Shown: positions 37,530 to 56,981, counted from the first letter of the whole stretch. The stretch is DNA of 57,877 bases, filler included, from Circinaria calcarea (GCA_051942165.1; 2 parts of 2 records of this genome joined end to end with filler, not necessarily neighbours in it), one strand, 5' to 3'. Numbers and translations: made by a program. Notes: generated by a model from the sequence alone, not told the origin.

Positions 37530-37930
37530 CTATTTGATATAACTGCTCCATTGTGCCAACATCCAGACCAAACTCCCTATGGCCGTACATCCAGACAGCA
37601 GTAATCCCTTCCCAGCCCTCATTGTGCCAAAAATCAGCCATTCGCTGGAAAAGTGGGCGAGAGCAATGACATAAGTCCATAGCGCAAGCGTGTACCAGTC
37701 CCCGTTGTTGATCCGGTACGCCGCGTATATCCGGATAATCCCCGCTAAAAAATGTCCAGGTCCCAAAAAGCCGTGCTGCAAGAGGGGTGACTTGATTTGT
37801 GGAGGTGGCGGCAGGGCCATTGTACATCCGCTGGGTGTAGTTTGACGGGCGGAGTAACTTTGAAGGGGGAGAAGGTATATTACGCAGAATGCCCAGCTAC
37901 CAATTAAATTGCTCTGGACGATTTTCAACG
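37530..37930 (-). CDS. ERG28: Erg28 sterol C-4 demethylase complex scaffold (5' part garbled; apparent frameshift in a homopolymer)
   Basis: YTQRMYNGP...QVTPLAARLFGTWTF, then (L)AGIIRIYAAYRINNGDWYTLALWTYVIALAHFSSEWLIFGT...SLVWMLAQWSSYIK*. The ARLFGTWT, RIYAAY and HFSSEWLIFGT motifs are diagnostic. The frame switch falls in an A6 run at ~37747. Confidence 0.88.
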
Positions 37931-38119
37931 GGATTCCGTGTGTATAAAGGGATTTAGGTTACTGCGCTTATTTTCAAGCACATTCCAACAACGGGCACTT
38001 CCCATTCATTGACTTCACTCATTCCGTTATGGTAGTATTTAGAAAAAATTGTGATATATAAATGCGAAAGAATTCTAGTGTTTCGCAGCCCGAATTTTTG
38101 CACAAGCGATTATCTCGTC

Positions 38120-38412
38120 GTCATATGATCTCCCGTTTTCAACTGGAACCCTTTTTTGAATTTTTTTAAAACGTACCTTTCCCGCCCCCTGCTCCCGCGG
38201 TATACCCATATGTTCAATACGATATAACTATTGCGCATGTAAACCGATTTTTGGCAAAAAGAGTCTAATTTGTTTTTTTTATCGCTGATTTAAGCGCTTC
38301 AAACTGAGCTCTCATTTGTAAAAAAAAAAAAAAAGGCACGCAGTATTGGTGAGTGCATCCAAACTACAAGCGTAAAGAGGTTGGGGGTCCGGGTTTGAAG
38401 TTTCTCACGTGA
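38120..38412. promoter_or_regulatory. Candidate SREBP-type elements in the ERG28/ERG26 bidirectional promoter
   Basis: GTCATATGAT at 38120-38129 and the palindromic E-box TCACGTGA at 38405-38412; the region is low quality. Confidence 0.35.
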
Positions 38413-38877
38413 TCTCAGTTTTCGCTTAGGACCCTTTTTTTTGGATCTTGGCACTTATTGTTTTTTAAAAATTCTAACTTTTTACGATTTGACCCGAAAC
38501 CTTAGCGGGTATGACTAAGAAAATTTGGTAAATTTGGGTATTGCTCCAGACTTTCCGCTACTATGAGAATACCACATCGGTGATATGCTATGGGTCAAGG
38601 TTTGATTTGACGCAAAGAATTCAATTGGTGCGTGCCCTGCCACGAAGATTGCACATACTCTTCTGTTTCGCAGCCTCGTCCTTTGACCAAAATCTGGATT
38701 ACTGGCTGACTTGGTATGACTTCCCAGATATCTCCTGAAACTGCTTCCGCACGTATTCTGATAACCTAACCAAGAAGACGACCCCAAATTCCCACTCTCA
38801 ACCTAGCCGACTCTGAAACACCTCTCGCCCCAATTGTTTCGAAGGTGACCTCCATTCGGGGAACTCGAGTTGCCATC

Positions 38878-39972
38878 ATGAGTTCAGAGCTTGGCTCCGT
38901 CCTTGTTATCGGCGGTTGCGGCTTCCTGGGCCATCATATCGTCTCGCAACTTTTGGGAAACAACGCCAAGGTCTCGGTGCTCGACCTCCGGACCACCCGT
39001 AATCGCATTCCGTCGGTGTCTTACTACGATGGAGACATCACCTCTGCCGCATCGGTTCAGTCCGTCCTCGAGAACGTCAAACCTCAGGTCATTATTCATA
39101 CAGCATCTCCTGTTGGAACCTCAGGAGACGCCGCTCTCTATTATAAGGTCAACGTTGAAGGCACACGGAATCTACTGGAATGTGCTGGCAAGTTCGGGGT
39201 TGTAAAGGCATTTGTCTACACATCCAGCGCCTCTGTTGTTGATGATTCTGTTAGCGATCTCATGGATGCCGATGAACGCTTACCGATCCTAAGAAGCCCA
39301 CAGCCGACGAAAGCCTACTCACTCACCAAGGGTATCGCTGAGGAGATTGTCTTGGCCGCCAACCGCAAGTACGACAGCATGTTAACGGTCGCGATACGCC
39401 CAGCCGGCATCTTCGGAGAGGGGGATAATCAAATGTTGCCAGGAATGCTGAATGCCTATGAGACAGGCAAGACCAAGTTTCAGCTGGGAGATAACACGAA
39501 CCTTTTCGACTTCTCGTATGTGGGAAACGTGGCGCACGCGCACATACTTGCTGCAAGGGAGCTGATACGAGTCTCCACGAGATCGGCACCTCTTCCAGCT
39601 CACAAAGTTGTAGAAGGTGAAGCGTTTTTCGTTACGAATGATGAACCCTACCGCTTCTGGGACTTCACGCGTGCTGTCTGGCGCGCTGCAGGGGACAAGA
39701 CCAAGCCTGAGGCTGTATGGGTCATGCCAAAGCATTTGGGTTTAGTCCTTGCCACCATGATAGAATGGTTGTTCTGGCTGTTTACGTTTGGAAGAAAGGA
39801 GCCAAGTTTAACGAGGGAGAAGGTCAAGTTTAGCTGCATGAACAGGACCTTCCGCATTGACAAGATCAAAAGTAGGCTGGGTTATAAACCTCTCATCAAC
39901 ACGAGCGAGGCTGTCAAGAGGAGTGTGCAATGGTTTGAAATGGAGAAGTTGAAAGACAAAAAGGCGAAATGA
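38878..39972 (+). CDS. ERG26: Sterol-4-alpha-carboxylate 3-dehydrogenase (decarboxylating), Erg26/NSDHL, intronless
   Basis: MSSELGSVLVIGGCGFLGHHIV, IHTASP, VNVEGTRNLLE, FVYTSSASVV, catalytic YSLTK, IRPAGIFGEGD, FQLGDNTNLFDFSYVGNVAHAHILAA, GEAFFVTNDEP..FWDF, LGYKP. Confidence 0.95.
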   Translation: MSSELGSVLVIGGCGFLGHHIVSQLLGNNAKVSVLDLRTTRNRIPSVSYYDGDITSAASVQSVLENVKPQVIIHTASPVGTSGDAALYYKVNVEGTRNLLECAGKFGVVKAFVYTSSASVVDDSVSDLMDADERLPILRSPQPTKAYSLTKGIAEEIVLAANRKYDSMLTVAIRPAGIFGEGDNQMLPGMLNAYETGKTKFQLGDNTNLFDFSYVGNVAHAHILAARELIRVSTRSAPLPAHKVVEGEAFFVTNDEPYRFWDFTRAVWRAAGDKTKPEAVWVMPKHLGLVLATMIEWLFWLFTFGRKEPSLTREKVKFSCMNRTFRIDKIKSRLGYKPLINTSEAVKRSVQWFEMEKLKDKKAK

Positions 39973-40302
39973 AAATAATTGTCCCAAGTAGCGGACAAAA
40001 GGACCATATTTCGTAGAAAGCGTTTGTCAGTACCTGACACCCGTCAATATCAGAGTCTGCTAGCGATCATCCCCGTGGAGTTCACTCACCGGAGGGGGTG
40101 AAAAGCTCGAGGCATTCCACATACTAAGAACCTCTCGTTGAAACCTTTGGACATCCCACGGATGTTTTTATGGAGATGTGTCAATTAGACATTGAATCGC
40201 ATCGAACTATGGAGGTGATCAGGCACACAGTTTCATATCATGTATATCGATACTTCCACGTACGTTCTCAGATTCAGGCCTGGATTGAACAGTATATAGA
40301 AG

Positions 40303-40495
40303 TCCTGTCATAGAAGGCTTGCCGTGCCATTTTTCTTACTCGGCTCATTCCAAAATAACTTGCGGTGTGCGACTAACGCACCTTTTCATGGCAGAAGTGG
40401 GGTATCGGATAAATACCTACCTTTTTCCCCTTGCGCCAGTACGCCTTTGTAGATCTTATGCGAGTGCGGTGAGCTAGGCACAGCAAGGAAGAGAA
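40303..40495 (+). repeat. Non-coding module A, copy 1 (direct repeat of 45522-45719)
   Basis: Shared blocks include gtgccattttt, ttccaaaat, cgactaacgc, tttcatggcaga, gggtatcggataaatacct, ttttccccttgcgcc, atgcgagtg and ggaagagaa; roughly 75-80% identity by eye. Confidence 0.9.
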
Positions 40496-40500
40496 TCTCT

Positions 40501-40855
40501 ATTATGGTCGATCACGCCCATGGTCGATAGCGATTATTGGCCTTTGAGGTATCGAGCCTTGCCGCGTAAAGTAGCCTATGCCCGATTCTGCTTGCTCTAT
40601 TATCAAGCCTGCGTAGATTGGTAAAACGCATTAGCCAAGCCGATCTTCCACATTTAGCTTAACTACTGTCGTAAAGTCAAATGCGGATACCCTTGCCTGC
40701 ATATGTGACTTGACTACCTAGCCCCACAGTTGGGTGTCGATACCTCCGTAGCAATCGAAACAAGGAGGAGATATGGGTTCGACTCCCGTTAGCGCTACTT
40801 TACGGAGTAGGTGGTTGGTGGTTCCCCTTTTCTTGTACCGCTAGTTGCCGCTCGG
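40501..40855 (+). repeat. Non-coding module B, copy 1 (inverted repeat of 45176-45514)
   Basis: Shared with the reverse complement of 45176-45514: atggtcgat, tatcgagccttgccgc, ctctattatcaagcctgcg, agccgatcttccac, ggatacccttgcc, tgcatatgtgacttgacta, tagccccaca-ttgggtgtcgatacct, ccgctagttgccgctcgg. Confidence 0.9.
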
Positions 40856-41563
40856 CTTGTTTGGCCGGATATGTAAATGCCGGGCAACACACTGTACCCT
40901 CAGGCTTGTCACTTATCTGCCTCGAATTCCCTCGTCCATCCACGTCATCCACATCCATCTTATTGTTCCAGGCACAGTACCATGCTGTTAAGTGGCTTAG
41001 TATATTTCCCCCACTCAGAGAAGGCTACTGCGGCTTATGGGTTTTGGCGCTGCTATTCTAATCTCAATCTCAATCTGCTTGTCTTTCAACTTCTATTGGT
41101 CATGACTCCCCAACATCCTGTCATTTGATTCCCGAAACTTTGACGCACCGGCAACCACCCCAAGTGTGTGTGCACAGATAGTAGACAGAGATTCCTCGAA
41201 GAACCATTCACCCGTGTGCTTCCATCTCGAGTCTTTACCGCTTGCTCCTTGCATTTTCAGCCTTTCTACCGATCTTTGTGGATCAGTGTTCATTGATTTG
41301 CAGTGAAGCCATGGCACAGCAGCAGTATTACTCTATCCGAGCCAACACATGCGTAGCATGTATTGGCCGCCGTCAGCCGTAATAGTACAGTAGATGCCTG
41401 ATTGCCCCACCAAGTATGTCGCTTACGAAAGAAGGTGTTGGAGTTTTGAAAATACCATCTTCTCTGCTGAGACACATCCTTCGTCCTTCCTACCATTCGA
41501 TCCCTCCTGAGGTCTCTGCTAGGAATATTGAGCAGAGTATTTTTATTATTGCTTATTCAGAAG

Positions 41564-42240
41564 ATGATGACAATGATTGAAGCTATCTATATTTTCTTGG
41601 TCACTTATAATTACATCGTACTTGCTGCTATCGGCATCATATTCACTCTCCTTATGATTTGGTTTGATAGACGAGTTGGAGCTCTTCCAGTACCTCCGGT
41701 TTGTAAATCTCACCTGGGCCCACATCAAGTTATTTATTCTAACATTATTAAATCAGACTAATGCTATGATACCGAGTCTCTCTGCTTCACGTCCAGGTCG
41801 ATGGATAGAAAACATTAAATACCTTTTCGAGGGCACCGAGAAGATACTCTAGAGTTACGTGAGTTCCTGGTGAAGGAGCAATTGAATCGCATCAAGACTC
41901 ATCCATCCTTTGCAGAGACCTGGAGAGCCTTATGTCGTTGCAACCCCAGAGAATTATTGCATCCTTGTCTCATCCAAGAAACATATGGTACAGCTTGGTA
42001 AAACGCCCGAGCTATCGCAGCGCGCAGCTTATGTTGATGTTAGTCCGAGAAAGAAGCCTACACATCGCCGTTCCCTGCTAATGACGGATTAACAGGTTCT
42101 CGGTTGGAGTAAACAGTTATTCAACTTGAGAATCCTAGGATAGAAGAGCAAACTACAGCAACCCGTGGGCTTCAAGCTCTAGTTCCCCAAATGAGGAGGT
42201 ATTATGCTTCATATATTATGAAATTGTTGGAAGGCATAGG
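41564..42240 (+). pseudogene. Truncated cytochrome P450 (N-terminal remnant, same broad class as the P450 at 46049-48258)
   Basis: N-terminal anchor MMTMIEAIYIFLV...IGIIFTLLMIWFDRR; RWIENIKYLFEGTEKIL*SY (in-frame TAG); RPGEPYVVATPENYCILVSSKKHMVQL...LSQRAAYVD. No K-helix or heme motif follows before the MFS gene. Confidence 0.7.
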
Positions 42241-42849
42241 GCTTACAGAGTCATGTGTTATCTACGGGTAATACACGGTCCATGCTCAAAACTCTCTACA
42301 CACTTCATGAAAGCGTTTTCTTCGTAGCATAGTTAGTTTAGTTATATACACACTCGGGTAGCAATACATGCAACTATACATGCTGCTGCCCATCAGAAAT
42401 TCTGGTGTATCTTCTAATAAACTACGACTTTAAACTTGCAGACGAAAATGCCTCCCTGAGATACAAATGGCGTTATTTCGGCTCCCGCGAGAGGGAATTC
42501 ATTTTCTTTTCCGCAAAAAGGTTCAGAAGGCTTAGAAGCAGTGAGGAGTAATTCGCTGTTATAGCGGTTTCACTTTAGATAATCGTATTCATTACCGCCT
42601 AATTCCATAGTGTTTATGGGTAATGTATAACCCAATGCGTTTATAAATAAATTTACGGTTCGGGTTGAATATTCAGGCACGATATGTGTAACGCCTGGTA
42701 GGGTGGCTGAGAATCTAGCACTGTCCAGAAGTATAAGCTACAGGGCACAGCCAAGGCTTCCCGGACCCCAACTTGCCGCCCATATGCTCTAGCATACCTC
42801 CCTTGCAACCTTTGCTTTTTCCTGCCCCGGCCACTTTGGGTTGCAACGG

Positions 42850-44562
42850 CTAGTCTATGCGGAAGCGCTTATGCTTTCGAATACGCTCTCCATATCGGAC
42901 TAGCAGAAAGGGGACCGGAATGAGAGCTACGGCAATGAAGCCAAGCAAAGAATTTCCCCAGCCAAGGCCCAACTTGTCATACATGGGAAGGCCAGCGAGT
43001 GGAATTAGAGCACCGACAATTGCTCGCCAGATAGCATTTGCCGCAAGTGCTGATGCAGCATGCTGAGTGAAAGCATCGACTAAATAGGCTTGTATGGCTG
43101 CCTATGACAGATATAACCAGTTAGCCGACCCTTTCCACGCTGATAAGTTAAAAAGGTCAATAATCAACGAGCAATATCAAACTAGCCACGGAAATTCCGC
43201 AAATGCTTACAAAAAACGTCATGATGCCCACCCCTACAAAGGAGGTACCTAAAATAGGCACGAGCCAGAAGACATGCTTCTCAGCTGTCCAGCCGTAAAT
43301 GAAAAGACCGACGGGGATGCAGAATCCGCCAGGTATCATAATCGTCAAACGGTATTCAGGCTTCATTTCCTCTTGATTGGCCTTGGCCCTTTTCAGCCGA
43401 CGGTCGGAAATGAGGCCGAACGCGGTCACACCAATGATCATTCCTATCCCTACACCCAAAAAGGTCAAGCCCACAAGGCTCGGTGAAAAGCCATAACCGA
43501 CCTCGAAAACGGTGGTAAGTGTTGTGAAAAGGAGGTATAAGTAGCCGTAGACGATTGCTGATAAAGTTGCGAGGAGAGATATAATGGGGGAAAACAAGAG
43601 CATTTTAAAAGGACGAATAATGGCATGCTGCAGGGCGTTGCGCCACGAGAGGTTCGAAGCAAGCTTGGAGCGGAGGCTCGGCTTGTTCAGCTGCTTACGT
43701 AGGCGGGCAGTTTTATGCTCCAAGAGCGCGACGGAGTAGGTTTCACGTACAGTGAAAGGATAGATTACCGTGATTGTGCTGGACTTGTACGGTTAGTCTG
43801 TGCACATAACGAATAGGAGGACTGGACTTTACCGCCATAGCGAGCACCCAAAAGACCCATCGCCACCCCTCGGCCGCTGACAGGAATCCGCCCATCACTG
43901 GTCCAATGATAGGGCCCAGTAGCGGACAAATGGACCATATTGCGATGGCTTTGCCGCGTTCTTCCTGCACGAAAAGATCACTGATTGTACCTCCGCCTAA
44001 GGCAATTACGGCTGACCCTGCAATGCCCTGAAGCAGCCGGAAGCCGATCAACATATCAAGGCTAGAGCTAACAGCGCAAGCCACTGTGAAAACAACGAAA
44101 AGGGCATTAGTACTATTGTACAAGGGCGAACGGCCATAGAGCTCTGTAAAGTCAGTATTAGCGATAGTTATCGCCCGGCCGGACAGGCGTACCTGAAAGC
44201 GGTGCAATAACCATAGGGCCGGCAGCGTTTCCAAGAACGTATACAGATACTACAAATGAGGCGAGCGCTGGGCTGGTGGATCCGAACTCGGTCATGAGCC
44301 GGGGCACGCCGGGAGCGAACATTGAGGAGGCAAGTGATCTATCATTTTTATCAATATATCGACAGTGAGTATGTGATGTTGAGTCCTATACATACGTGAT
44401 TAATGTCATGGCTGCAAGGCTCGCGATCAGGAGCCATTTTTTCCTCGGCTTCCAGTTGAGCGCTATCTCTGGGTCTAAAGGGCCGTTGAAATCCACAATA
44501 TCGAGATCGGGAACCTCCAATGCGTTTAGACAAGCAAGCGCAGCCTTTCTATCACACCGCAT
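42850..44562 (-). CDS. MFS drug:H+ antiporter (DHA1 family), multi-exon; start uncertain
   Basis: DIVDFNGPLDPEIALNWKPRKKW, SLASSMFAPGVP, ELYGRSPLY, FRLLQGIAGS, GGGTISDLFVQEERGKA, GPIIGPVMGGFL..GWRWVFW, RETY, RPFKMLLFSPI, KPEYRL, YLVDAFTQHAASALAAN, LGLGWGNSLLGF. Confidence 0.9.
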
Positions 44563-45175
44563 GATGTTTCTGTACTGTATCTATGTCGGAGACTGTGTTA
44601 TAAGATTATTGAAGGAAATAGTCTTCTTGACATCAATTTATGAGTCTGGTAGAGAATTTTTCCTACTTTCCCAGATCATCTGGGCCTTCGAACGGTTGCA
44701 ATAGTGCCTTGATTGCTAAGATAAGCGTAATTATTAATAACGCAAGCCCTCACACAGCTTGATCGAAATATTCTAGAAGAGAAGGTAGCGAGCTGTCGAG
44801 TCAGAGGAGCAAGAGTATCCAAAGGCATATGCCGGGAGCAGCGATGAGGGCCAAAAAACTGGTGAGCGGGCTGAGGGCTTCCCAGAGCTTCGGAGCAGAC
44901 ATCACGCCTCCGATCGAGACCCTCGTGGACACAGAAGCGAGAAGTACAGAGTAAGACAAACCTTATCAGCGTAAGGAATAGCGGCAGAGGGACGAACCGT
45001 CTCCGCGCTGGTTTACCACTTGCACAGCGCCGATTTGAATCCTCTCTTGATGACATTGGGCGCTTTCCAGTTATTTGAGACTCAGCCGCAGCGGAAACCT
45101 CCGTGTTAATGGAAGATATCCCTGTGGGAGGAAGTGGGGCTAATAACGCAATGCCATGGGAGATCGGGGAAAGAT

Positions 45176-45514
45176 CCGAGCGGCAACTAGCGGCAGCTAC
45201 GGAGTTAATAATCAAGGTATCGACACCCAATTGTGGGGCTAGTCAAGTCACATATGCAGCTACTGGCAAGGGTATCCACTTTTGAACTTTACTACGCGGT
45301 GTGGTAGTAAAGCTCAACGTGGAAGATCGGCTGGGCTAATGCTTTTTATTAATCTATCTATCATGACCCCCACTCAACCTAGCCAAGGCTAATATTGTCC
45401 CTCAGCCGCAGGCTTGATAATAGAGTAAATAGAGCGGGCATTACATCATGCGGCAAGGCTCGATATTCGAAAGGGCCGGTACCGCTATCGGTCATACGCG
45501 TCATCGACCATGAT
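45176..45514 (-). repeat. Non-coding module B, copy 2 (inverted relative to 40501-40855)
   Basis: The reverse complement aligns block by block to 40501-40855, with indels. Confidence 0.9.
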
Positions 45515-45521
45515 GGACAAC

Positions 45522-45719
45522 TCCTGTGATAGGAGGTTGCTGTGCCATTTTTCCTACTTAGCTTATTCCAAAATGGCTTGTGGCGTACGACTAACGCTCC
45601 TTTCATGGCAGAGGTAGGGTATCGGATAAATACCTCACACCCTTTTCCCCTTGCGCCCCTAGATAGTGCTCCTTTGGATCTCATGCGAGTGTGGTGAGCA
45701 AGCACAGCAGGGAAGAGAA
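45522..45719 (+). repeat. Non-coding module A, copy 2 (same orientation as 40303-40495)
   Basis: tcctgtgataggaggttgctgtgccattttt...gggtatcggataaatacct...gcacagcagggaagagaa. Confidence 0.9.
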
Positions 45720-46048
45720 AGTTCGGAGTAGAGGCTAGACCGTGAGTATGCAAAACCCTACACGCATAGCATCACCTGCAGGCACTCCAGGCGGCCAGGT
45801 CATGGGATCATGGGATTACTAAATTACTGTGTGCATGGCGCGACTTCGATCAGGTGGAAGGCCATTTGAGTATGGATCGACTTGTATCCTCCCTAAACGG
45901 GATAATTTGAAAAGAATTACAAGTGCTACGCAATTTTCATTTGGGAAACATAGTCTTATCAAAATTCTACTATGCTAGATCGAATGACAACTTGCTGACT
46001 GCTGTTTCAGCTCTAACAGGGATAAGCTAAAGCAAAGAGTGTTGAGTT

Positions 46049-48258
46049 TTACGATGAAGGATTTCGTTCACGGACAAGAATTGCCAGCCGAGGATGCGGG
46101 ACGCATGCAATTCCCCAGTTGAGAGTTGACGGCGCTTTTGAGTGGGCAATTTTGAAATCGTAATGAGTAACAAAGTGCGCAACAACCATTTTAGCCACCA
46201 TCGACACGTAGAATCTGGCTGGACTATGTAAAAAAGTAAGCTGAAGTAACAGCCAACGGCATATGAATGTTCCATAACACTCAGTAATATGGCGATTTTA
46301 GCTCGAGGACTTACCAAGCTTGCTTTACTATCCCCCAATAGGGAAACGTCCAGCTAGGATGTGAAAGTCTGCATGTAGAAGCTGGCGTGGCACCGTTCCT
46401 TTGGTCCACAAACCGAAAGCCCTGAAAGCTGAGCGGATCCGCATAGTATGCTGGATCTTGCATGATATCTTTTTGAGGAATGCAAATCCAGTTTCCAGAT
46501 GGAACATATGCGCCGTCGGAGAAATTAAATGACGATACAACTTTATGAGGCATGCTCACTATGCGCAGGTTAAATAGTGCTGCAATCCCGGAAGGTAACC
46601 AGGGCTAGAGAAGTCTTACCGATAGTAATAGGGTGAAGACGAGCGACCTCCTTCAAAAAACTATCAAGATACGGCATATCTTCGTTGTTGATATCGTGGT
46701 TATTCTCTGAGGAACGCTCTACCTCTTGGCGTAAAGGTTCAACATATTCAGGATGCATACAAAGTCGATAGAGGGCGAATGTGAGCAACTGCGAGTTTAT
46801 CAATGCATAGACAGCATAGACGATTAGAGAATAGCTAACATACAACTGGCAACTGATGGGTGGAAGCAAATAGGATAGCAAGAACATGTCGACTTAAAGC
46901 AGGCACTGTTGCCTTTCTTGAACGATCGATAGACCATTGGACGCAATTGATCTGAGCATATATAAGCACATCCTTATAGCAACCAAAAACAAGACTAACT
47001 GGCTTATTTGCAGCTGACCTCGGATTTTGGATCAAGTATTCGATTTCTTTAGTAATAAGGCCAGATAAGTTATTCATACAACCACCTGACTGCATAATAG
47101 CCATGCCAATCAACCTAAACCTGACTGTGAGCGTCTAAGTAGAATGGTAATCCATACCGGCCTTACGGTTTAAAAGCACTTAGAACGCCGGGGACAAATC
47201 GAAGGATTTCTTCTGCAATAGTGGCGTTGCGTAGATAGTGCATCAGTGAATCGATGAATTTCGGATCACCAGCTAGAAAGAGTCAGACTCGGAATTCCCA
47301 GTGATAATCGCAAAACGTACACAAGTCTGCTCCCACAATGACAAGACTATTGAGTCTCGCAGATAGTTTATACATCGCATAGTACGCAGAAATTTTGGTC
47401 CAACCTAATCTATAAGTTAAAGCAAGTCCTGCTCAAGTATAGGTCGAATCGAGAATAGTTCACATACCATTGACTACTTTCTTGCCCTGCATCTCGGTGA
47501 GAAATGCTTCTTCCATTCTTGTTCGTAATAAGGGTTGAAGTATAGGAAGATGAGATCTTAGATTAGATTTGAAAATGACCTGAGATAAATTTAAATTGCC
47601 CTGGATATCACCAGCGGGCATCCCGCCATAAAGCTCATTCGGCGGGAATAACTAGAAACAAATAAATGTAAGAAGCTTGAAAAGAAATCGGCGGTTTGAT
47701 AGCACCAACCTCGTGAACTGCACCTTGGAGAGACACATCATAGATGGAAGCATGATTGAATTCTTCGATGTGTTTGCTAGATGAGACGCACACGTGGAAC
47801 TTGTCTCTTGTCGGAATCGCCCATAGGTTTCCCTTAGCCTAGACCATAAGCTTTTTGTTTGTAACCTTCTACTTCGGCTATCTGGACATACTCTTGTATA
47901 AGCACTAGATACCAGCCTTTCGGCAAAGAACAAATGCAGAAAGCCAGTACACCATCGCCCAAGAATGGTAGACATCCCAATAATCTGGATATTTTGCTAT
48001 AGGTGATGCAGTCAGGATCCTGGCTCCCAGAACTTGGGCTGGGTTTCTTACCGGGGAAAGGAGCACCATCCTGTAAGCCGTCTTCACCTCCCATGCTATA
48101 AACGGTATGAGAAGCCAATACCAATGCCACCATTGCAGTAGTAATAAAACAAAACTCAGTGCTTGGGTGTCCTTCGGCTTGTAGCCATGGTCTGGGTGGC
48201 GATACTGTTTCCCAACAGAGAGAGAACTACAGTTTGAGAAAGGCGGAGACTCAAACAT
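46049..48258 (-). CDS. Cytochrome P450 of the intron-rich secondary-metabolism class (ent-kaurene-oxidase/terpenoid-oxidase-like); alternative ATG at 48288
   Basis: TM anchor LSFVLLLLQWWHWYWLLIPF; WAIPTRDKFHVCVSS; LRSHLPILQP; I-helix LAILFASTHQLP; LYRLCMHPEYVEPLRQE; K-helix LDSFLKEVARLHP; DPLSFQGFRF; heme loop WGIVKQACPARFYV across an intron. About nine GT-AG introns; the exons checked have consistent phases. Confidence 0.88.
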
Positions 48259-49701
48259 AATGCAATAACAATACACAGAGAACTTCATACGGAAAAGTGG
48301 GAGAGTAAGACACAAGCCCAAAACAAGTATCTTCCCCAGAAGATATTGAAAAGAGTCAGAATGATTTCATAGGCTGAAAGTCAATAGCCTTAACGTAGCC
48401 GAATCGAGATTAATTCCGCGAAGCACAGCCCGAGATGGACCCCCAACTCACAATTCTCCAGGTTTAGAAACGAGTTAGCTTTTGCAATAGATAAGCGTTA
48501 CTTGGGTTTTGCGGCGCTCACGGCCTATCAGCAATTATTTGCCATTCGTCGTGCGGCTGAGGTGTACTGCGGTAACTAATATGCTGATCTCCTTATGCGC
48601 TGATATGCTGGACGAATAAAACGCCATACATCACAGCTACGTTGGGGGCCTAATGGTGCCCACCTTAGCAGCATCACCACCACCATTAAGTCCTGAACTG
48701 GAGGCGCCTAGCGGCAGGAAAGACCCACTCATAGTGGTCGGAGACTGCTACATTATCTCACATATGCTGGTCACCCTTCTCAGGAGGGAATCGGTGAACA
48801 GAGCTTGCAGGGCCTCTAAGATGGAGCTATTATCATGCGGTTGATTGGCATAATATGGTACACCTATCAGAGTAAGTCTCAGCTACGCTTTTAGTGGTGG
48901 AGTCATTCCGCACCTCCATAACTTCGTCAGGTTGCCGTTATGTCTATCCGGTTGCCTCTTTCATGCCTTCCTCATTGAGTTGTGAGGTTTAATACCACTG
49001 CTCATACCTTTCCGACACCTACCTGTAGTGTGATGGCCTACAAGGCCACCCCTACTCCGTAGTGCAGCCAATACCGTGTGCACTAACAGTTCCCAGTGTA
49101 GTGCGCTGCCAAGCCCAGTTCTCGGTGCAGTGCGGAGGGCACTGCACTGCACTGCCAGTCCAGTTTAGAGGGTGTCGTACGGCCACGAGCCATTTGCCCG
49201 CCCCCACTGTAACCCCGGAGCCGTAATCGAGGCAATATACCCCTGTTTAGCGAGATTGCAATGCAGTTCGGGAACCATAACACTGTCAGGATATGCCCCG
49301 CAGACCATTGCCATATAACCTGCTATAGTAAGTGATCGTGCATGCGTGTACACCATTTTGGCGTAGCCGTAGTAGCTTCACCCACTATTACTAAGCTATG
49401 ACAAACACGGTACCAATAATAATGCGGAGGGCCACTGTCAAGCTAGTGCAGCTTCGAGGCCCATGCGAAAGGGCGCGATTTTAGTTTCCGGACACAAGCT
49501 TCTCGCTAAGCGCTTCCTGTGTCCGGAGACTTCAGACGCATTCTTTGTACTCCGTACTGCAGCGCACTAAACCGCTGCGAGCACAGTAGGCGCTAGTACT
49601 ATTAGCGCCTGTTGAAGATGATATTCGCAATAAACATTAAGCATTTACTCAAGTTTGATTTTTCTTATTGAAAAACTGATAGAGCAAGGAGTTATTTCGC
49701 T

Positions 49702-51401
49702 ATGGAGAAAAGCATAATAAACACGGTGGTTGTTACGCTCGTGGCAGTAATAGGTGCCACGACCTTATTCCTGGTGAGGCGTCTTCGAGTTCCTCGATTT
49801 CCAAATGAGCCGCCTTATATTTCTTCGATGGTCCCATACATTGGGCATGCTCTCGGACTATTTCGACACAAAATGTCATACTATAGTAAAATCAAGTATG
49901 TACATATCTTCCTTGCTTCGATAGGTTACAAAAAGGGTTACAGCTCGAGGATTGCCGTTTATTTATTAAGACCGAGACTATGTGTGTATCTTGCCGCTAA
50001 TCTAGAAGTGCCGTCTCAGTGTACACCGATTGCCAATCTACACCCTCACCATGCCGGGTGGTAAGATATACGTTGTGAACTCGCCCGACCTGGCGGTAGC
50101 GGTGCAGCGCCATCCGAAAACCCTTTCTTTCTGGTACCTAGAGGCACTGTTTGGGCAGCGTCTAGCTGCACTAAGCAAAGAAGCCGGCACCAAGCTTATG
50201 ACAAATGTGCAAGGCGAAGAAGGCGAGATCAGTCTCTTCCTGGACGGGATCAAGTTCTTGGCAAAGATCCTGAAACCAGGTGAGGGCCTCGATCACATGA
50301 ACCGCGTCGCACTTCAGAGTATCGCTGCATCGCTGGCCAAGTTCGAAGGCGATGGAAGCAGCAGAGTGGACTTGTGGGAGTGGATCCGCCACGAAGTTAC
50401 CATGGCGACGACGGAGAGTACGTATGGCAGAATGAACCCCTACAGGCAGGAAGAGGTGGAGACAGCATTCTGGCAGGTCGTGGAAATCCTATATCCTAGT
50501 ATTGTGTGCTAACAATGCTAGGCAACTCTCCGAGTATGCGTCTTTACTCCTTCTCGGAGCTATGCCAAGTATCTTTGCTAGAAAAGGTTACCTAGGTCGC
50601 GATAAGGTCACTGCTGCATTTGAGAGATACTTCGAGCTTCAAGGCTATGAGAATGCTTCTCCAATGACAAAGGGCCGTCATGAGATTATGCGAAAGCACG
50701 GTATCTCTGTTAAGGATATGGCGCGCTTCGAAGGTGTACAGGGAGTCACGATACTTTCCAATACTGTACCCTCCGCATTCTGGACGTTGTATCACGTTTT
50801 TTCAAGACCGTCGGTGCTCCAAAGCGTTCGAGAGGAAGCCTATACAATGCTAAGTGTCAGAGAAGAACAAGGTATAACAATACGGACACTCAACATCGAC
50901 AACATCAGGGAAATCCCCGTGTTTGCCTCGCTCATACAAGAAGCGCTTCGTCACCAAGCCCTGGGTGCGGGCACTCGGATGGTGATGGAGGATGTTCTGC
51001 TAGACAGCCACTACCTACTAAAGAAAGGCTCTTTTCTAATGATGCCCAATGCAATATTCCATTTTGATGAATCTACGTGGGGTCCGACTGTGGAACAGTT
51101 TGACGCTAAACGATTCATCAAATCCAAGTCAAGCGGGAAAGTTCATTCTGGCGCATTCCGGGCCTTTGGAGGTGGCGCTAACCTTTGCCCTGGGAGGTTC
51201 TTTGCCGTGACAGAAATCTTATCAATGGTCGCAATGTTCGCATTGAGATATGACCTCACTCCTGCCTCTGGCGAGTGGGTTGCTCCTAGACCAGATCTAG
51301 CAAATATGTCCTTTATAGTCAACCCTCCAAAAGACAAGATAGCTGTCACCGTAAACCCTAGGAAGGGATGGGAGCATGGTCTGTGGGCATTTGAACTTTG
51401 A
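49702..51401 (+). CDS. Cytochrome P450, CYP7/CYP8-like (sterol 7-alpha-hydroxylase-like) fungal clade; 2 introns
   Basis: TM anchor, EPPYISSMVPYIGHALGL, LPIYTLTMPGGKIYVVNSP, YGRMNPY, I-helix ILSNTVPSAFW (Asn-Thr as in CYP7/8), EALR, FDAKRF, heme FGGGANLCPGRFFA. Confidence 0.92.
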
Positions 51402-51609
51402 AAAGGGAATACAGAGTAAGAGGAGCCAGTGATTGGCTTAACAATGTCCACTAAATATGGAATAAGGATCAGTTTAGAACATTTCGCGTCTATTTTTGAT
51501 AATGCTTCTTTTTCGTCTCTCGTATTGTAAATTGGCTATACCATATTCAAATAAAATCCAAATTCAGTCCCGAGCCCAGATCAGCATGCGTCGTCTACAC
51601 GCAATTTAA

Positions 51610-53156
51610 TCAACTTTGCCATATTCTATGTGTCAGATGGATTTGATCGTCCTTCACCGGCTCTGCCTTTCCCCTCTCTATATAAGTTTTCACGGTGTGT
51701 GTTTGGCCCAAATTATGCTGTGATTGCATTGATGCAAAGTCGGCATTAATACGGTATACTTGGGACGGCTCGATGCTATGCATATTAACCTCGGAGCCGA
51801 CTTTCCCAAGTTCGACGTCTGACTGAAAGCGGCTGAAGGACTTGTTGTTCCGAGTCATTATGCTGCGCAAATCGCTCCATCGCGAATAGAGTTTGGATTT
51901 CAGCGTCTGGTAGATCGGAAGATGATGTTGGACCACCTTCGAGAAAGAGGGTATGCATGACACGATTACTCCGACGTACATTTCCACGAGTCTACAACCT
52001 TGTTAGCGGACTGAATGGCTATAGAAACATTGTGAGATACCTACGCTAAAAGTATAACGTTAAGACTGGCCCATGTTGTATCATCGGTCGAATTATCGAC
52101 GACTCGGTAATAAATACTGAGGAGGGAGGCAACGCAGGCGCTATGTGACCGTCTTTAGTAGTAGTTAGAAGGAAGGAGGGCTTACTATCATACAGTAAAC
52201 CGGTCAAAAAGATCAATATGATCCCGATCTTACGTCGCTTCGGCATCTGCAGTTGCCAAATAGCCCTAATGGGCAAAATTAAAAGATAGATGTCGGTGAC
52301 AAACCCCACGGAAGCTATAGGAATTGAGAGCCCATATTGTGCATTATGTTCCTGCACACTGAAAAGGTGCTCTAGCCATGTTTCCCCGGATCTGGGGGTT
52401 GTAAGTATGAACATGGCAATGCTGGCGGCAACGTAAAATGCACTCGTGAACGTGCCGCCAATATAAATACAGATTCTCATCCATCTCAGTGGGCGAAACA
52501 GTTGAAAGTACATAATGTAGAAAGTGAGCTTGGCGGCAAGAAGAGTTGGCCCGGGCAGCGCAGAACTCAGGAAAGCTTGTGACTGTACTAAAGTTAGTTA
52601 TGCTTCCATTGCAGCAAGCGTGTGAACCCACAATTATGAAGCCTTTACCCAATATAGTAGCAAGTGTTACGTCCCATTGGTGCTTTCCCAACCCATTTTT
52701 TACTCCTATTGCAGGATTTAGCAGGCGCTCACAAGTTAAGATTTGAAAGGAGCCAGATGACTCACCCCATATCTCGACCCCCAAATATGCCGTAGCACCC
52801 ATCTATTAAAGGCTCTATCAAAAAGGGTTCCGGTGGCATCTATTAGGAGGAGGTCTGGTGATGAACTCACAACTGCAAGGGAGCAAGTCACTGTTACTGC
52901 CTTTAGCGTGATAATACCATCCGAGGAGAAGTCAAATTAACTTACGATCATCCCAAGCCAGTTTTCGAATGATGAAAAGCCTAGAATACATTCTGACTGA
53001 ATAGAAGAGTAACATGAGGCCCCATAAGATGGAGCCCACAATGTGTATGAGATACCCTCGGTCTTCTGGATTGGTGAAATTGGAGACTACTCCTGGCGGT
53101 GGCTTCAAGGCAGGAATCATGCCCCATAGTGCTGGCGGAGGAAGTGACGTTGACAT
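51610..53156 (-). CDS. PTH11-like fungal rhodopsin-domain integral membrane protein (no CFEM), multi-exon
   Basis: PALKPPPGVVSNFTNPE, VRMYSRLFIIRKLAWDD, GLGKHQWDV, AKLTFYIMYFQLFRP, VTDIYLLILPIRAIWQLQMPKRRKIGIILIFLTG, VEMYVGVIVSCIPSF. Confidence 0.9.
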
Positions 53157-54165
53157 GATGGAAGATGTTCAGATCTTAAAGGCCAAGTGGTCAGGATGTG
53201 ATGAAAGCAACAGGGGGGAAATGAGAAAGACGTGAGTAGGCCACTGCGTGAGCAAGTGATCAGGTCACCCGGGAGAAACACCGAGGACTTCGGGCGAGTG
53301 TAACGCAAAGAACAGCCGGAAAACATTCATGAGAGATATAGAAGCCAAGAAGGCGGAGCCCCCTTCGTCGTACAACAATGGAGGCTGAGGTTAAAGGCTT
53401 GTGCCAGTGTTTCGGCTTGAGCGGACAGGATCTGCTGAGAGGAGCAGCTGTGAAAGGGGACGCGGAATCCGCAGTTGACAGTGCGCCATGCATGCAAGCT
53501 TTCTGTGCGAGAATGGCGTGGCAGAAGGATGCTTAGTACCAAAGCCCACTCGATATCGGGGAATAACATCTCCAAGAGGGGTTGCGCCATTTACCCAGGA
53601 GCTGGGGTCCTCAATCCTCACGTACATGCCAGTTGCAGCAGCCGATCCGAGTCAGGCATCGAATAGTTCTAGTTCTACAGAGTATGCGGGAGCCGAAACA
53701 GAAGAGGCACGGTCACTGCTGCATGACTATTTCACCCACAGCCAAAGAACTAGTCCCGCCTTAGTGCTTACTTACAAGTCGGTAGAATTCACTTTCAAGG
53801 TACCTCAGCTGTGCCCGACAGGCCCCCACCCAGTCTACCATACGGAGTGTTGTAGCCTGACTAACGCAATTCAGTTAGAATATTTGAGCCAAATGGTAGC
53901 TCTTGCCGCCAAGTCGAATTTACTACCACTTTGTAGTATCTGACGTTGTACAAGTACTGCTTCTTCAGCTGCCGAAGAGATGCCTTTTCGCCTTTTTAGC
54001 CCCTTGTGCTTGTTACTAGCTGGCTGGGCTCGGCCTTTTACCTCCCCGTCTTGTGCTCCCAGCTCAGCCTTTTCAAATTGTCAGATTCTTCTTTGGATTA
54101 CCATTGACCTCCTTCTGATACCCGTGGCCTGATTGTCTATCTCCACGCAAAGAAACGATCATGAA

Positions 54166-55251
54166 ATGGAAGACCACCTCGGCATTGTCCTGGTGATTGG
54201 TGGGTGCGGCTGTGTCGGCTTTCACGTCGTCAAAGCATTGCTCGAAGAACCATCTTGCTCCTCTATCCATGTCTTCTCTCGCAACCCATATCATAATCGT
54301 CTCCCAGGCGTACAGTATCACGCCGGGAGCCTTACTTCCTTCGAAGACATACGCTCCCTCTTCGAAACCATTCACCCGACCGTCGTTTTCCATGTCGCCT
54401 CTCCACTCTCGTCCGGTAACGATGCCAATAACAAACTCTTCTATGATACGAACGTGCAAGGCACCAAGTACCTACTGGATCGGGCCGGCAATACTCCAAG
54501 CGTCAAGGCCTTTGTTTACACATCCTCCTCAAGTGTCGCTCAGGAGCCTTACAACTTCATCACAGAGGCCACCCCACTAATTTCATGCAAATCTGGCTTC
54601 AATTACTACTCGGCAACTAAAGCGTTGGCTGACGAGTGCGTCCTGAAAGCTAACAATCCAGCGGGTGGCTTCCGCACTGCCTGTCTTCGCATCTGCACCG
54701 TCTACGGCGAGCGGGACAATCAACTGATTCCGGGTACACTCAAGGCGCTCCGAGACGGGCGGCAACATAACCAGATCGGAAGCAACACTCATCTGTTTGA
54801 TTTCGTCTCTGCTACCAATGCCGCAACAGCCCATGTACTAGCCGCCAAGGCCATACTACGAGGCTTCCACGACCCCCAATCACCAAAGGTCGATGGCGAG
54901 GCTTTCTTCATTACCGACGGTAAGCCCGTCTTCTTCTGGGACTTCTCCCGCAAGGTTTGGAGCGCAGCAGGAGACCGAACACCCGCAAAGGCAGTCAAGA
55001 TAATTCCTGCCTGGTTTGTACTCGGTCTTGCGATCACGGTGGAGTGGATTTATTGGGTATTTACCTTTGGGCAAAGGACGCCGAAATTTCTGCGTAGCCA
55101 CACGATCCGATGGGTGACATCACAGCGCACATTTTCGATAGAGAAGGCGAAGCAACGGTTGGATTATAGGCCTGTTGACGACATGGATGAGAGTATCATC
55201 AAAGGTGTTGAATGGTGCTTAAAAGAAACACAAACGTCGAAAAAGTACTAG
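54166..55251 (+). CDS. Second Erg26-like 3-beta-hydroxysteroid dehydrogenase/decarboxylase paralog, intronless
   Basis: MEDHLGIVLVIGGCGCVGFHVV, FHVASP, TNVQGTKYLLD, KAFVYTSSSSV, catalytic YSATK, VYGERDNQLIPG, QIGSNTHLFDFVSATNAATAHVLAA, KVDGEAFFITDGKPVFFWDF, WIYWVFTFG. Collinear with 38878-39972 but clearly diverged. Confidence 0.92.
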   Translation: MEDHLGIVLVIGGCGCVGFHVVKALLEEPSCSSIHVFSRNPYHNRLPGVQYHAGSLTSFEDIRSLFETIHPTVVFHVASPLSSGNDANNKLFYDTNVQGTKYLLDRAGNTPSVKAFVYTSSSSVAQEPYNFITEATPLISCKSGFNYYSATKALADECVLKANNPAGGFRTACLRICTVYGERDNQLIPGTLKALRDGRQHNQIGSNTHLFDFVSATNAATAHVLAAKAILRGFHDPQSPKVDGEAFFITDGKPVFFWDFSRKVWSAAGDRTPAKAVKIIPAWFVLGLAITVEWIYWVFTFGQRTPKFLRSHTIRWVTSQRTFSIEKAKQRLDYRPVDDMDESIIKGVEWCLKETQTSKKY

Positions 55252-55466: not shown

Positions 55467-56981
55467 ATGTCGTTATTTAGCATCTGCATCATTGTGCCCA
55501 AACCTTCAGTGAATTCGGTGAAGAAAGCCCTAGAGGCGCAAAGGAAGTTAGACAAAGCGCGAAAGATTGAAAGTATCAGCAACGCAGAGTGTTTACTTGA
55601 ATATGTCACCGAAACTGGTTACCGGTACGATGGCAGAGGGTTCCTTGTGCGCACAACGGAGACCGTCAAAGTTACAGATGAGAGTACTGCCCAAGCGATG
55701 CTTGACTCCGAGAGAGACTCCCTAGCAAGAAAGCTAGGGATTGAGCTGTATGCTCCAATGGTCAGCTTCGCCGTCTACCCCTGGGAATTGGATTCGACAC
55801 TATCTGCACTACCAGGGTGGGATACGCCCGCAAAAGGCCGCTTGGCTCAGTTAATCACCCACTGGCTCCTCGATCTCCCATCCGAACTCCGTTCCTCCCT
55901 TCCAACTCCCGTCACCCAGCTTGTCTCCATATTGCCAGCCTCTTATACCATCTACCCGCCGCTTCTCCTCCTTCCCCCACCCGCCTTCACCCGTCCGCCC
56001 TGGCCCAAGCTGCTAGACACGATTCTGAAGCCCTACCTCCTAGCTCTCTACCTCCTCCTCTGCCAAACCCTCCACGTCACGCACATCGCCCGCAACGCAC
56101 CCATCCCCCTCCTCTCCACATCCACCGAAGCAAACCCTTCCCCCAACATCCTCCGTGCGCCAATTGCTCTCACCCGTCTCCACGGCGACTTCGGACCCCC
56201 AGGTCTTCTACCCTCCCCGTCCGCCTTCACAGCCGCCTTCTGGGTCTCCACACGCCAGCACTCCATCTACCAGACCTGGGCCCCCCTCTACACCATGTTT
56301 TCGCGCGGCAACATCTCCGAGAAGGCGCGGATCTTAGCCATGCCGGAGCTCAGTACCGAGAGGCTAGGCTATGAGCCCGCCGAAAGCAGTGCCGTGGATC
56401 TGTATGCCGGAATCGGTTATTTTGCGTTTTGCTATGCGAAAAGGGGGGTGGGAAGGGTGTTCTGCTGGGAGATTAGCGGGTGGAGTGTTGAGGGGTTGAG
56501 GCGGGGAGCGGAGGGGAATGGGTGGAGAATAAGGATGGTTGAAGGGGAAGAGAGATGCGAGGGCAGCCGGGAGAAGTTGGTAGTGTTTGCGGAGGATAAT
56601 CGGAGGGCAGGTGAGAGGATGAGGAGCATGAGAGGGAGGATCCCGCCCGTCCGACATGTGAACTGCGGGTTCCTGCCGAGTTCGGAGGGGAGCTGGGAGA
56701 CGGCGGTTGATGTTTTAGATCCAGTGGAGGGAGGATGGGTTCATGCACATGAGAATATTGCGATTGAGGATATTGAAGCAAGACGGGACCAAATCGTGAA
56801 GCTTTTTGAAAGATTATTGATAGAGCACGGGGCCAAGCCACACCGAACGGTGGAATGCCAGCATCTGGAGAAGGTCAAATCATACGCGCCAGGCGTCATG
56901 CACTGTGTGTTGGATATCTATATCGGGCCCGCCCTCCAGTCCACCAGGTCTACTGTAACCACGCCCAAACCAGGAAGCTGA
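55467..56981 (+). CDS. TYW2: tRNA wybutosine-synthesizing protein 2 (Trm12/Tyw2 aminocarboxypropyl transferase)
   Basis: YTIYPPLLLLP, VTHIARNAPI, NILRAP, FWVSTRQHSIYQTWAPLYTMFSRGNISEKARIL, AVDLYAGIGYFAFCY, CWEISGWSVEGLRRGA, RHVNCGFLPSS, HAHEN, VKSYAPGVMHCVLDI. Confidence 0.93.
   Translation: MSLFSICIIVPKPSVNSVKKALEAQRKLDKARKIESISNAECLLEYVTETGYRYDGRGFLVRTTETVKVTDESTAQAMLDSERDSLARKLGIELYAPMVSFAVYPWELDSTLSALPGWDTPAKGRLAQLITHWLLDLPSELRSSLPTPVTQLVSILPASYTIYPPLLLLPPPAFTRPPWPKLLDTILKPYLLALYLLLCQTLHVTHIARNAPIPLLSTSTEANPSPNILRAPIALTRLHGDFGPPGLLPSPSAFTAAFWVSTRQHSIYQTWAPLYTMFSRGNISEKARILAMPELSTERLGYEPAESSAVDLYAGIGYFAFCYAKRGVGRVFCWEISGWSVEGLRRGAEGNGWRIRMVEGEERCEGSREKLVVFAEDNRRAGERMRSMRGRIPPVRHVNCGFLPSSEGSWETAVDVLDPVEGGWVHAHENIAIEDIEARRDQIVKLFERLLIEHGAKPHRTVECQHLEKVKSYAPGVMHCVLDIYIGPALQSTRSTVTTPKPGS

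Follow-up and report, generated by a model that had tools for sequence, protein, structure and literature searches.

Which of the genes gathered around ERG26 in this genome work together, and on what would they act? We analyzed a stretch of 57,877 nucleotides, filler included, from the lichen fungus Circinaria calcarea (GCA_051942165.1), hereafter called the window, in which an ERG28–ERG26 pair is followed by P450 sequences, a transporter gene, a PTH11-like gene, and a second ERG26-like gene. The initial annotation read this block as a backbone-less sterol-tailoring cluster built between two ERG26 paralogs. A conserved unit does exist, but ERG28, ERG26, and the MFS transporter are not members of it (Table 1).

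Results

Four intact genes in a patchwork interval

The working unit consists of the four intact genes at 46049–55251 and is smaller than the block first proposed. P450-A and a CYP7/8-type P450 (CYP-B) are transcribed divergently, CYP-B converges on the PTH11-like gene, and the latter diverges from a 3β-HSD-like SDR of predicted NADP type (SDR-b). Spliced models and Pfam searches bore out the divergent P450 pair, the PTH11-like gene, and the second ERG26-like SDR as first described. The DHA1-type MFS gene was likewise found intact, and the block is flanked, as had been stated, by LCB3-like and TYW2-like genes, with a further flanking gene that we take to be SSP120. In line with the initial annotation, no large PKS, NRPS, or cyclase ORF appeared in the window ORF lists, which were inspected by eye and, for 22 chosen ORFs, with Pfam. 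An Rfam search over 36000–57877 gave 0 matches, an NCBIfam search returned only bacterial models below the cut-off, and the ESM Atlas returned the same family labels again. No promoter motif common to the cassette copies was found, and the Upc2-type box, which we take to be TCGTATA, is absent from the window's two divergent promoters.

Table 1. Features of the ERG26–TYW2 region, with positions counted from the first nucleotide of the window
Feature	Position	Strand	Description
ERG28 pseudogene	37530–37867	−	Second copy (paralog) of ERG28, with its 5′ end missing and 3 frameshifts
Dispersed repeat	38123–38464		Upstream of the ERG28 pseudogene
ERG26	38878–39972	+	Asp-type (NAD), intact, 364 aa, PF01073 1e-64
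Scrambled remnants	39974–40774	.	MFS piece of 40 bp; direct and inverted copies of 45215–45719
P450 remnant	40005–40294	−	Fragment of P450a from the C411 cassette, inverted, with stop
P450 pseudogene	41564–42614	+	1.35-kb internal deletion, stop, 170-bp dispersed repeat
Dispersed repeat	42225–42396		Inside the P450 pseudogene; >30 copies in the G000 assembly
DHA1-type MFS transporter	42850–44562	−	Intact, 482 aa
P450-A (cassette gene 1)	46049–48258	−	Intact, 541 aa, 10 introns
CYP-B (cassette gene 2)	49702–51401	+	Intact, 508 aa, 2 introns
PTH11-like (cassette gene 3)	51610–53156	−	Intact, 402 aa, 6 introns, PF20684 8e-17
SDR-b (cassette gene 4)	54166–55251	+	Intact, 361 aa, PF01073 5e-44
TYW2-like methyltransferase	55467–56981	+	PF02475 weak, NF047824 3e-8; right flank of the variable interval

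The same assembly contains a second copy of the interval (C411). In both copies, the slot next to ERG26 is filled by a P450/SDR cassette, and the one on C411 is a different two-P450/SDR/PTH11 cassette. The remnants to the left of the window's cassette are the decayed rest of this other cassette, which is still intact on C411. A single P450 remnant had been annotated; it is real, but there are two, each with a stop. The larger (41564–42614) shares 89–90% DNA identity with C411 8337–9366 and 10751–10969 and is what is left of P450b of the alternative cassette. ERG26 is 90% identical to the C411 copy (dN/dS 0.39), and the TYW2-like region shows 88% DNA identity to C411. The MFS gene is locus-specific, with only a 5′ stub in C411 and no ortholog in the 24 loci examined.

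The ERG28–ERG26 pair stands only in part. ERG26, with human NSDHL as its best PDB match, is intact and forms the flank of the insertion site, outside the cassette, but ERG28 is a pseudogene. Compared with its intact sister copy on contig C5100 of G000, it has lost the first ~30 codons and carries three frameshifts, and in C2181 and C411 the gene is split by a transposon. Together, the three frameshifts and the lost 5′ end rule out that the break is a sequencing error. Another intact ERG28 lies on contig C56 among housekeeping genes, and the window's paralog is 53% identical to it.

Hence, the interval is a patchwork in which an old and portable four-gene cassette here fills a slot of variable content, with ERG26/MFS on one side and TYW2 on the other. 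We hold this structural half of our explanation with high confidence. Idiomorphic (allelic) secondary-metabolite loci are known in Aspergillus fumigatus. As in those, two related copies of one interval (C51 and C411) differ in the cluster that lies between the flanks; unlike those, the two alternatives are both backbone-less with the same parts list, and C411 may be allelic to C51, paralogous to it, or from a second genotype. Our literature search yielded no lichen case of idiomorphic cluster loci.

The cassette in other fungi

Two unrelated metagenome contigs (L022 and L028) carry all four genes, their order and orientation unchanged, at 49–74% identity and with introns kept; synonymous sites are saturated or nearly so. 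PTH11–SDR neighbors also occur in L024 and L031/L032. Locus tags of CYP-B and SDR-b are adjacent in Hymenoscyphus albidus (12077/12078) and H. fraxineus (13346/13347) and three apart in Xylographa vitiligo (002349/002352), and matches to both proteins fall on contigs of equal sizes (44866, 43716, 6817, and 40526). In L023, which matches L022 at 99% identity in the region of the SDR, that gene stands without its three partners. Since the cassette is conserved across fungi, its orthologs are not scattered, and these putative tailoring genes form a physical cluster conserved across species. A description of the four-gene cassette was not found in a literature search confined largely to openly accessible journals.

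Among the 24 loci, of which only three cassette-clade loci have long flanks, none contained ERG28, LCB3, TYW2, SSP120, a second ERG26-like gene, or an MFS ortholog. With no ERG26, ERG28, LCB3, or TYW2 beside the cassette at any of these loci, the ERG26 site is simply its location here. In L022 and L028, no backbone ORF was found within 10 kb to either side of the SDR; of this, the part beyond P450-A is shorter than 1 kb in L022 and shorter than 3 kb in L028.

Related modules occur elsewhere in G000. One on C353 combines a CYP7-like P450, PTH11, and a paralog of sterol C24-methyltransferase; one on C146 places CYP7-like/PTH11 next to an aromatic amino-acid lyase and a methyltransferase. Other CYP7-like/PTH11 modules adjoin O-methyltransferases and FAD oxidases, and these and the C146 neighbors mean that CYP7-like genes here are not sterol-specific by context. 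Besides the cassettes of C51 and C411, about ten P450/PTH11 modules were seen in this assembly, which is in 5512 contigs, so that long-range context is short.

Comparison of SDR-b with ERG26

SDR-b is an ERG26-like extended SDR in which the Gly-rich motif, the Ser, and YxxxK are all kept. Strand 2 is followed by Ser38-Arg39, the NADP(H) type under the coenzyme rule for the residue after this strand (PMC2792337). Ser-Arg is found in 117 of 118 homologs, and ERG26 and NSDHL have Asp at that place. The protein is 73% identical to its best ortholog and 41% to the window's ERG26, and in the tree its Ser-Arg clade (support 98) is separate from the Asp-type ERG26 group (support 99). Lacking the NAD-specifying Asp and not grouping with Erg26, SDR-b does not qualify as an Erg26/NSDHL enzyme; its sequence places it in an old Ser-Arg subfamily, predicted to be NADP-type. 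The separate clades rule out local duplication of ERG26 as its origin. With SDR-b in this clade and no ERG26 beside the cassette in the loci examined, the notion of a unit built between two ERG26 paralogs is not supported. The sole PDB match of SDR-b at 1e-15 was the sterol enzyme NSDHL; a fold search placed sugar-nucleotide SDRs on top, with NSDHL absent among the matches listed.

The P450s and the PTH11-like protein

By sequence, CYP-B matches CYP8B1 and CYP7A1 best in the PDB, and the I-helix Asn lines up in these comparisons. In a fold search with the ortholog from H. albidus (49% identical), CYP7A1 ranked first, followed by CYP8A1 and CYP51. The I-helix Asn and the nearest folds (CYP7A1/8A1/8B1) place it in the CYP7/8 structural clan, and it is at this level that the CYP7/8-like label given initially is upheld. 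P450 families are usually delimited at about 40% identity to a named member, and CYP-B, at 17–20% identity to human CYP7/8 enzymes, falls outside the CYP7 and CYP8 families proper. The Trp preceding the I-helix Asn in CYP7/8 is not conserved, and the clan is not sterol-only, as it includes prostacyclin synthase (CYP8A1). Intron 2 of CYP-B has a GC donor at 50473, which is GT in the orthologs.

The spliced model of P450-A is free of stops and frameshifts and contains ExxR and the heme Cys. It is 70% identical to the L022 copy and 59% to that of L028, with all 10 introns kept, and 68% identical to Xylographa soralifera MMC17_004984. We take it to be of the intron-rich LovA/CYP503/CYP512-like type. 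Its best PDB match is CYP3A4 (4e-13); a protein word search with one exon gave no match, and an HMMER library search gave few named matches and no named characterized relative.

The PTH11-like protein is of the fungal-rhodopsin 7TM type and contains the class 14 domain (PF20684); a CFEM domain was not seen, and a crude hydropathy scan gave five segments above threshold, not seven. It is 58% identical to the L022 copy and 51% to the L028 copy. The cassette copies form one group versus eight other G000 copies (support 0.92), and the PTH11 gene has been inherited along with the cassette rather than picked at random. G000 holds 165 PTH11-like matches, which lie near P450s of all kinds and occur on 19 of 84 P450 contigs. 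They also occur on two of eight MFS contigs, a control in which only nine of 291 candidates were scored. One such gene adjoins a diterpene-cyclase-like ORF on C55.

Discussion

The demethoxyviridin (vid) and viridiol (vir) clusters (PMC5943271; PMC8254937) resemble the cassette in being backbone-less and in combining a CYP7-annotated P450 (vidE/vir8) with an SDR (vidM/vir5); their enzymes work on steroids. The vid cluster has no core gene; vidE is described as “25-hydroxycholesterol 7-alpha-hydroxylase” and vidM as “C-3 sterol dehydrogenase,” acting from 3-keto to 3-OH (PMC5943271). The Hymenoscyphus ortholog of vidM, vir5, is annotated as NADP-dependent. However, vid/vir comprises 17 to 19 genes, with six P450s, a BVMO, and an esterase, compared with three enzymes in the cassette, and its gene tables contain no 7TM gene, whereas the cassette has a PTH11-like one. 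The cassette is not the vir cluster itself, nor are its genes orthologs of the Hymenoscyphus vir genes: vir spans HYFRA_8107–8123 and HYALB_10866–10882, the cassette pair is HYFRA_13346/47 and HYALB_12077/78, and the different HYFRA tag ranges make these separate loci. The helvolic acid (hel) cluster (PMC5696383) also has P450s and an SDR, the latter working at C3/C4 of a tetracyclic triterpene, but includes an oxidosqualene cyclase, acetyltransferases, and a KSTD, and the cassette is without a cyclase; HelC was assayed with NAD+ (PMC5696383). With the Erg26/NSDHL–Erg28 complex, SDR-b shares the family, YxxxK, and Ser, and the window also holds an Asp-type Erg26. It differs in having Ser-Arg instead of Asp and in its separate clade, and the neighboring ERG28 is a pseudogene. 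Neither ERG25 nor ERG27 was seen in the window.

In our preferred reading, to which we give an even chance, the cassette is a backbone-less module that would oxidize a sterol or triterpenoid and set its C3 redox state, like VidE/VidM. That the substrate is a sterol or triterpenoid at all is slightly favored. Lacking a backbone enzyme, the cassette would draw such a compound from primary metabolism. The CYP7/8-type enzyme would hydroxylate the ring system and P450-A may contribute a second oxidation; SDR-b would use NADP(H) to pass between the 3-keto and 3-hydroxy states, which is the part that VidM plays in demethoxyviridin formation, and, unlike Erg26, would not decarboxylate C4. Most likely, the 7TM protein inherited with these enzymes senses the input or product of this chemistry. 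The C353 module, with its sterol-methyltransferase paralog, speaks for this reading. Against it stand the low identity of CYP-B to human CYP7/8 and its lack of the Trp, the fold ranking of SDR-b, the neighbors of the C146 and similar modules, the solitary SDR of L023, the want of a characterized P450-A relative in our searches, and a chemistry review of the Ostropomycetidae that gives only four common sterols.

It is possible, though the less probable view, that the same genes serve in tailoring or detoxification of a lipophilic compound other than a sterol, be it an aromatic, an oxylipin, a terpenoid, or a product of the partner, with PTH11 as a generic passenger in accessory regions. The number of PTH11-like genes in G000 and their frequency near P450s, the lyase in the C146 module, and the presence in the same clan of CYP8A1, which is not a sterol enzyme, are all consistent with this, as is the report that 4.2% of Pth11-like genes lie in PKS/NRPS clusters (PMC12842992). 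Against it, the nearest solved relatives by sequence of both the CYP7-type P450 and the SDR are sterol enzymes, the P450/SDR pair has a steroid precedent in vidE/vidM, and the PTH11 copy is co-inherited.

The sterol reading could be carried further, in that the three enzymes would make an oxidized sterol that the Pth11-like receptor senses, amounting to a fungal steroid-hormone-like signal kit. We consider this unlikely. Under it, swappable cassettes (C51 versus C411, and about ten more modules) would be alternative chemical dialects. For Pth11-like genes in clusters, the cluster products have been suggested as possible ligands (PMC12842992). Those cases are mostly PKS/NRPS clusters; here, the setting is backbone-less and a receptor ortholog accompanies three enzymes across fungal classes.

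It is improbable that the cassette is a satellite finishing the product of a distant backbone cluster (e.g., of a hopane/lanostane cyclase or a PKS), since it travels as a self-contained unit from one locus and class to another and has no backbone ORF near the SDR in L022/L028, even if the fragmented assembly limits long-range context and terpene clusters are numerous in lichen genomes, according to a preprint (bioRxiv 10.64898/2026.06.16.732702). Least probable of all is that the whole block from ERG28 to the second ERG26-like gene is one cluster tapping the C4-demethylation complex and exporting through the MFS. A second ERG28 paralog does adjoin ERG26, both copies have a P450/SDR cassette beside ERG26, and the window's MFS gene is intact. 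However, ERG28 is broken, none of the flanking genes accompanies the cassette in the 24 loci, and SDR-b, which is without the Asp that specifies NAD, does not stem from a recent duplication of ERG26.

The cassette preferred here as a sterol- or triterpenoid-oxidizing module is a small, intact, cross-class gene unit that backbone-centered cluster finders would not call. Its value is that of a testable lead. Judging from the Ser-Arg subfamily, many lichen-genome genes that carry an ERG26 annotation are probably tailoring enzymes of the NADP type. Most fungal GPCRs are without a known ligand (PMC12161586), and Pth11-like genes make up the largest class in lichen fungi of the genus Peltigera (bioRxiv). 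From lichen fungi to Helotiales, the receptor has stayed beside the same set of three enzymes and so offers a direct candidate ligand pathway, and, if the receptor does sense the oxidized sterol, each cassette would give an orphan receptor such a pathway.

Gene content of the window block

Three genes of the block, P450-A, the CYP7/8-type P450 CYP-B, and a PTH11-like gene, required spliced models, which were derived from a frameshift-aware alignment or put together from the coordinates of their exons. Together with SDR-b, a second ERG26-like SDR, they form a four-gene cassette, and all four genes, as well as MFS and the Asp-type ERG26, are present and open from start to stop. The CYP-B model requires a GC donor at 50473, which is GT in both orthologs (loci L022 and L028). 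ERG28, previously taken as a cluster gene, lacks about 30 codons at its start and carries three frameshifts when compared with the intact sister copy (C5100); a second intact ERG28, more distant (53%), lies amid housekeeping genes on C56. A P450 remnant had been described between ERG26 and MFS; the gap in fact holds two, along with repeats and rearranged copies of sequence from close by.

Features of the window and of the second copy of the interval (the window joins contig C50 and then contig C51, and subtracting 29095 from window positions gives positions in C51; the assembly, G000, comprises 31.5 Mb in 5512 contigs)
Feature	Position	Strand	State
ERG26	38878-39972	+	open reading frame, start through stop
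MFS	44562-42850	-	open reading frame, start through stop
P450-A	48258-46049	-	open reading frame, start through stop (spliced model)
CYP-B, CYP7/8-type P450	49702-51401	+	open reading frame, start through stop (spliced model)
PTH11-like gene	53156-51610	-	open reading frame, start through stop (spliced model)
SDR-b, second ERG26-like SDR	54166-55251	+	open reading frame, start through stop
Alternative cassette: P450a, Ser-Arg SDR, P450b, PTH11-like	G000:C411:3700-13856 (L010, L011)		apparently intact

Two dispersed repeats of the assembly, at 42225-42396 (more than 30 copies, 74-89% identity) and 38123-38464, lie in or beside dead genes. The divergent P450-A/CYP-B promoter contains short repeated GCACTGCA/TGCAGTGC motifs (49040-49220), which were not found in the matching L022 or L028 promoters. 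Positions 29300-33700 hold what we take to be sugar-catabolism genes (SDR, sorbitol-dehydrogenase-like, and inositol-dehydrogenase-like); the sorbitol-dehydrogenase-like gene lies in pieces in different frames here and is more complete in C2270, a 91-93% copy.

Conservation of the cassette in other genomes

Scanning metagenome contigs with an SDR-b alignment yielded 24 loci, two of which (L022 and L028) carry the complete cassette in the same order and orientation. Identities for P450-A, CYP-B, PTH11, and SDR-b are 70, 66, 58, and 74% in L022 and 59, 49, 51, and 60% in L028; all introns (10 + 2 + 6) are retained in both, and synonymous sites are saturated or nearly so in the five pairs measured. 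L025 and L026 are near-copies of L028 (99%), and in L024 and L031/L032 PTH11 adjoins the SDR before the contig sequence ends. L042 has a more distant SDR and both P450 types in a different order, L027, L029, and L030 have less than 1 kb of upstream sequence, and in the remaining 12 loci the SDR is distant and the cassette absent. Around the SDR, L023 matches L022 at 99% identity, but over 10 kb of AT-rich DNA it has none of the other three genes, a presence/absence polymorphism in which only the SDR is kept. In L022 (1000-11100), the cassette is an island of normal GC, and the SDR-side DNA is AT-rich (19-24% GC).

CYP-B and SDR-b are adjacent by locus tag in Hymenoscyphus albidus and H. fraxineus, which implies that in these fungi PTH11 lies at another place, is absent, or has escaped annotation; the two are three tags apart in Xylographa vitiligo, and the two families have matches on same-size contigs in four further cases. 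Physical clustering is therefore kept across species, for four genes in L022/L028 and for the pair in Hymenoscyphus. ERG28, LCB3, TYW2, SSP120, a second ERG26-like gene, and an MFS ortholog occur at none of the 24 loci, of which, within the cassette clade, only L022, L023, and L028 have long flanks. In L028, the cassette has two flanking genes (2-797 and 12406-14584), one transferase-like (weak PF02458) and one a DHA2-type MFS, which could be local add-ons.

An alternative cassette in the second copy

The ERG26-to-TYW2 interval occurs a second time in the assembly, on contig C411, where most of the shared DNA is 86-90% identical to the window (dS 0.13 and 0.21). C411 shares ERG26, the 5' part of MFS, and DNA as far as window position 45811, after which the gene set differs, and its cassette has no DNA similarity to that of the window. 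Its SDR is of the Ser-Arg type (49% to SDR-b), its PTH11-like gene is 45% identical to the window's, and all four genes aligned without stop or frameshift, the P450 models being based on 32-35% references. Both P450 remnants in the window are pieces of C411 P450a and P450b. The window cassette thus occupies a slot that, in the sister copy, carries an alternative cassette. C411 may represent an allelic copy, a paralog, or another genotype within the MAG: window positions 29.7-38 kb likewise have 91-94% copies in the assembly, and positions 9-28.9 kb have none. A DDE transposon, presumably Pogo/Fot1-like, interrupts the second-copy ERG28 and joins C411 (1-131) to C2181 (1-2100, L015).

Properties of SDR-b and the two P450s

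In SDR-b and 117 of 118 homologs, strand 2 is followed by Ser-Arg, and in ERG26 and human NSDHL by Asp. By the rule linking this residue to the coenzyme, as given in the accessible part of PMC2792337, SDR-b is predicted to be NADP(H)-dependent. In a 137-row tree (quick search, midpoint-rooted, several long branches), the cassette SDRs fall within one 28-row clade (SH-aLRT 98), separate from the Asp-type group (99). At least six further ERG26-like matches occur in the assembly (C670, C4933, C1477, C4103, C3884, and C3951); among three full-length ones checked, two are Ser-Arg and one (C670) is Asp.

A PDB sequence search with CYP-B gave CYP8B1 and CYP7A1 as best matches, with the I-helix Asn aligned. 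For the modelled H. albidus ortholog (pLDDT 86), the nearest fold was CYP7A1, followed by prostacyclin synthase, CYP8B1, and CYP51, at just 16-22% identity. Sequence searches with P450-A revealed no close relative among solved structures or named characterised proteins; we assume that it resembles LovA/CYP503/CYP512-type terpenoid oxidases.

PTH11-like genes and P450s

The cassette PTH11 copies form one group relative to eight other copies in the assembly. PTH11-like genes occur on 19 of 84 P450-bearing contigs, about fivefold the 3.9 expected for contigs of comparable length rank, and on 2 of 113 kinase contigs, where 6.3 were expected (P450 versus kinase, Fisher p 2e-6); all lists, here and below, are lower bounds from the part of the candidates scored. 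For CYP7-like P450 contigs, the count is 6/13 excluding the window's contig, or 7/13 including a PTH11 seen later on C428. The linkage may reflect accessory regions in general, since the accessory control (PTH11 on 2 of 8 MFS contigs) is too thin.

Small modules pairing a PTH11-like gene with P450s, MFS, methyltransferases, or an SDR recur on C240, C255, C146, C276, C353, C428, C971, C977, C144, and C1477 (L046-L058, L063, L067-68, L014), with no backbone ORF seen in the fetched stretches. The 12-kb C353 module (L056, L057:829-2314), comprising a P450, a PTH11-like gene, an MFS, a CYP7-like P450, and an ERG6-like sterol C24-methyltransferase paralog, ranks above the window as a sterol-tailoring candidate. 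C146 (L050, L051) has an aromatic amino-acid lyase, a methyltransferase, two CYP7-like P450s, an MFS, and a PTH11-like gene.

According to the portions available, 4.2% of Pth11-like genes sit in backbone clusters, whose products have been suggested as ligands (PMC12842992); most fungal GPCRs have no known ligand, and lichens have an expanded set of Pth11-like genes, with induction in the cortex/photobiont layer (PMC12161586; Peltigera preprint).

Discussion

The cassette is a real, intact, cross-class set of four genes without a backbone gene. No description of it turned up in the paper listings searched, the available parts of PMC12422058 and PMC12113121 containing nothing specific. A sterol or triterpenoid is our best single guess for the substrate, held at even confidence; a non-sterol substrate is a possible but rather unlikely reading. 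That a remote backbone supplies the core is improbable. The originally proposed unit, from ERG28 to the second ERG26-like gene and framed by two ERG26 paralogs with MFS, is very improbable, given the absence of these neighbors at the 24 SDR loci and the broken ERG28.

Among related systems, the helvolic acid cluster differs in having its own cyclase, and its HelC used NAD+ in assay (PMC5696383, in part). The sections available of PMC5943271 describe a 19-gene demethoxyviridin cluster including vidE, a homolog of which is annotated as 25-hydroxycholesterol 7-alpha-hydroxylase, and vidM, a C-3 sterol dehydrogenase forming 3-OH compounds. The homologous Hymenoscyphus vir cluster (HYFRA_8107-8123) is not detected by antiSMASH, and its vir5 (vidM) is annotated as NADP-dependent (PMC8254937, in part); its position rules it out as the cassette. 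By analogy, the cassette may act as VidE and VidM do in the demethoxyviridin pathway.
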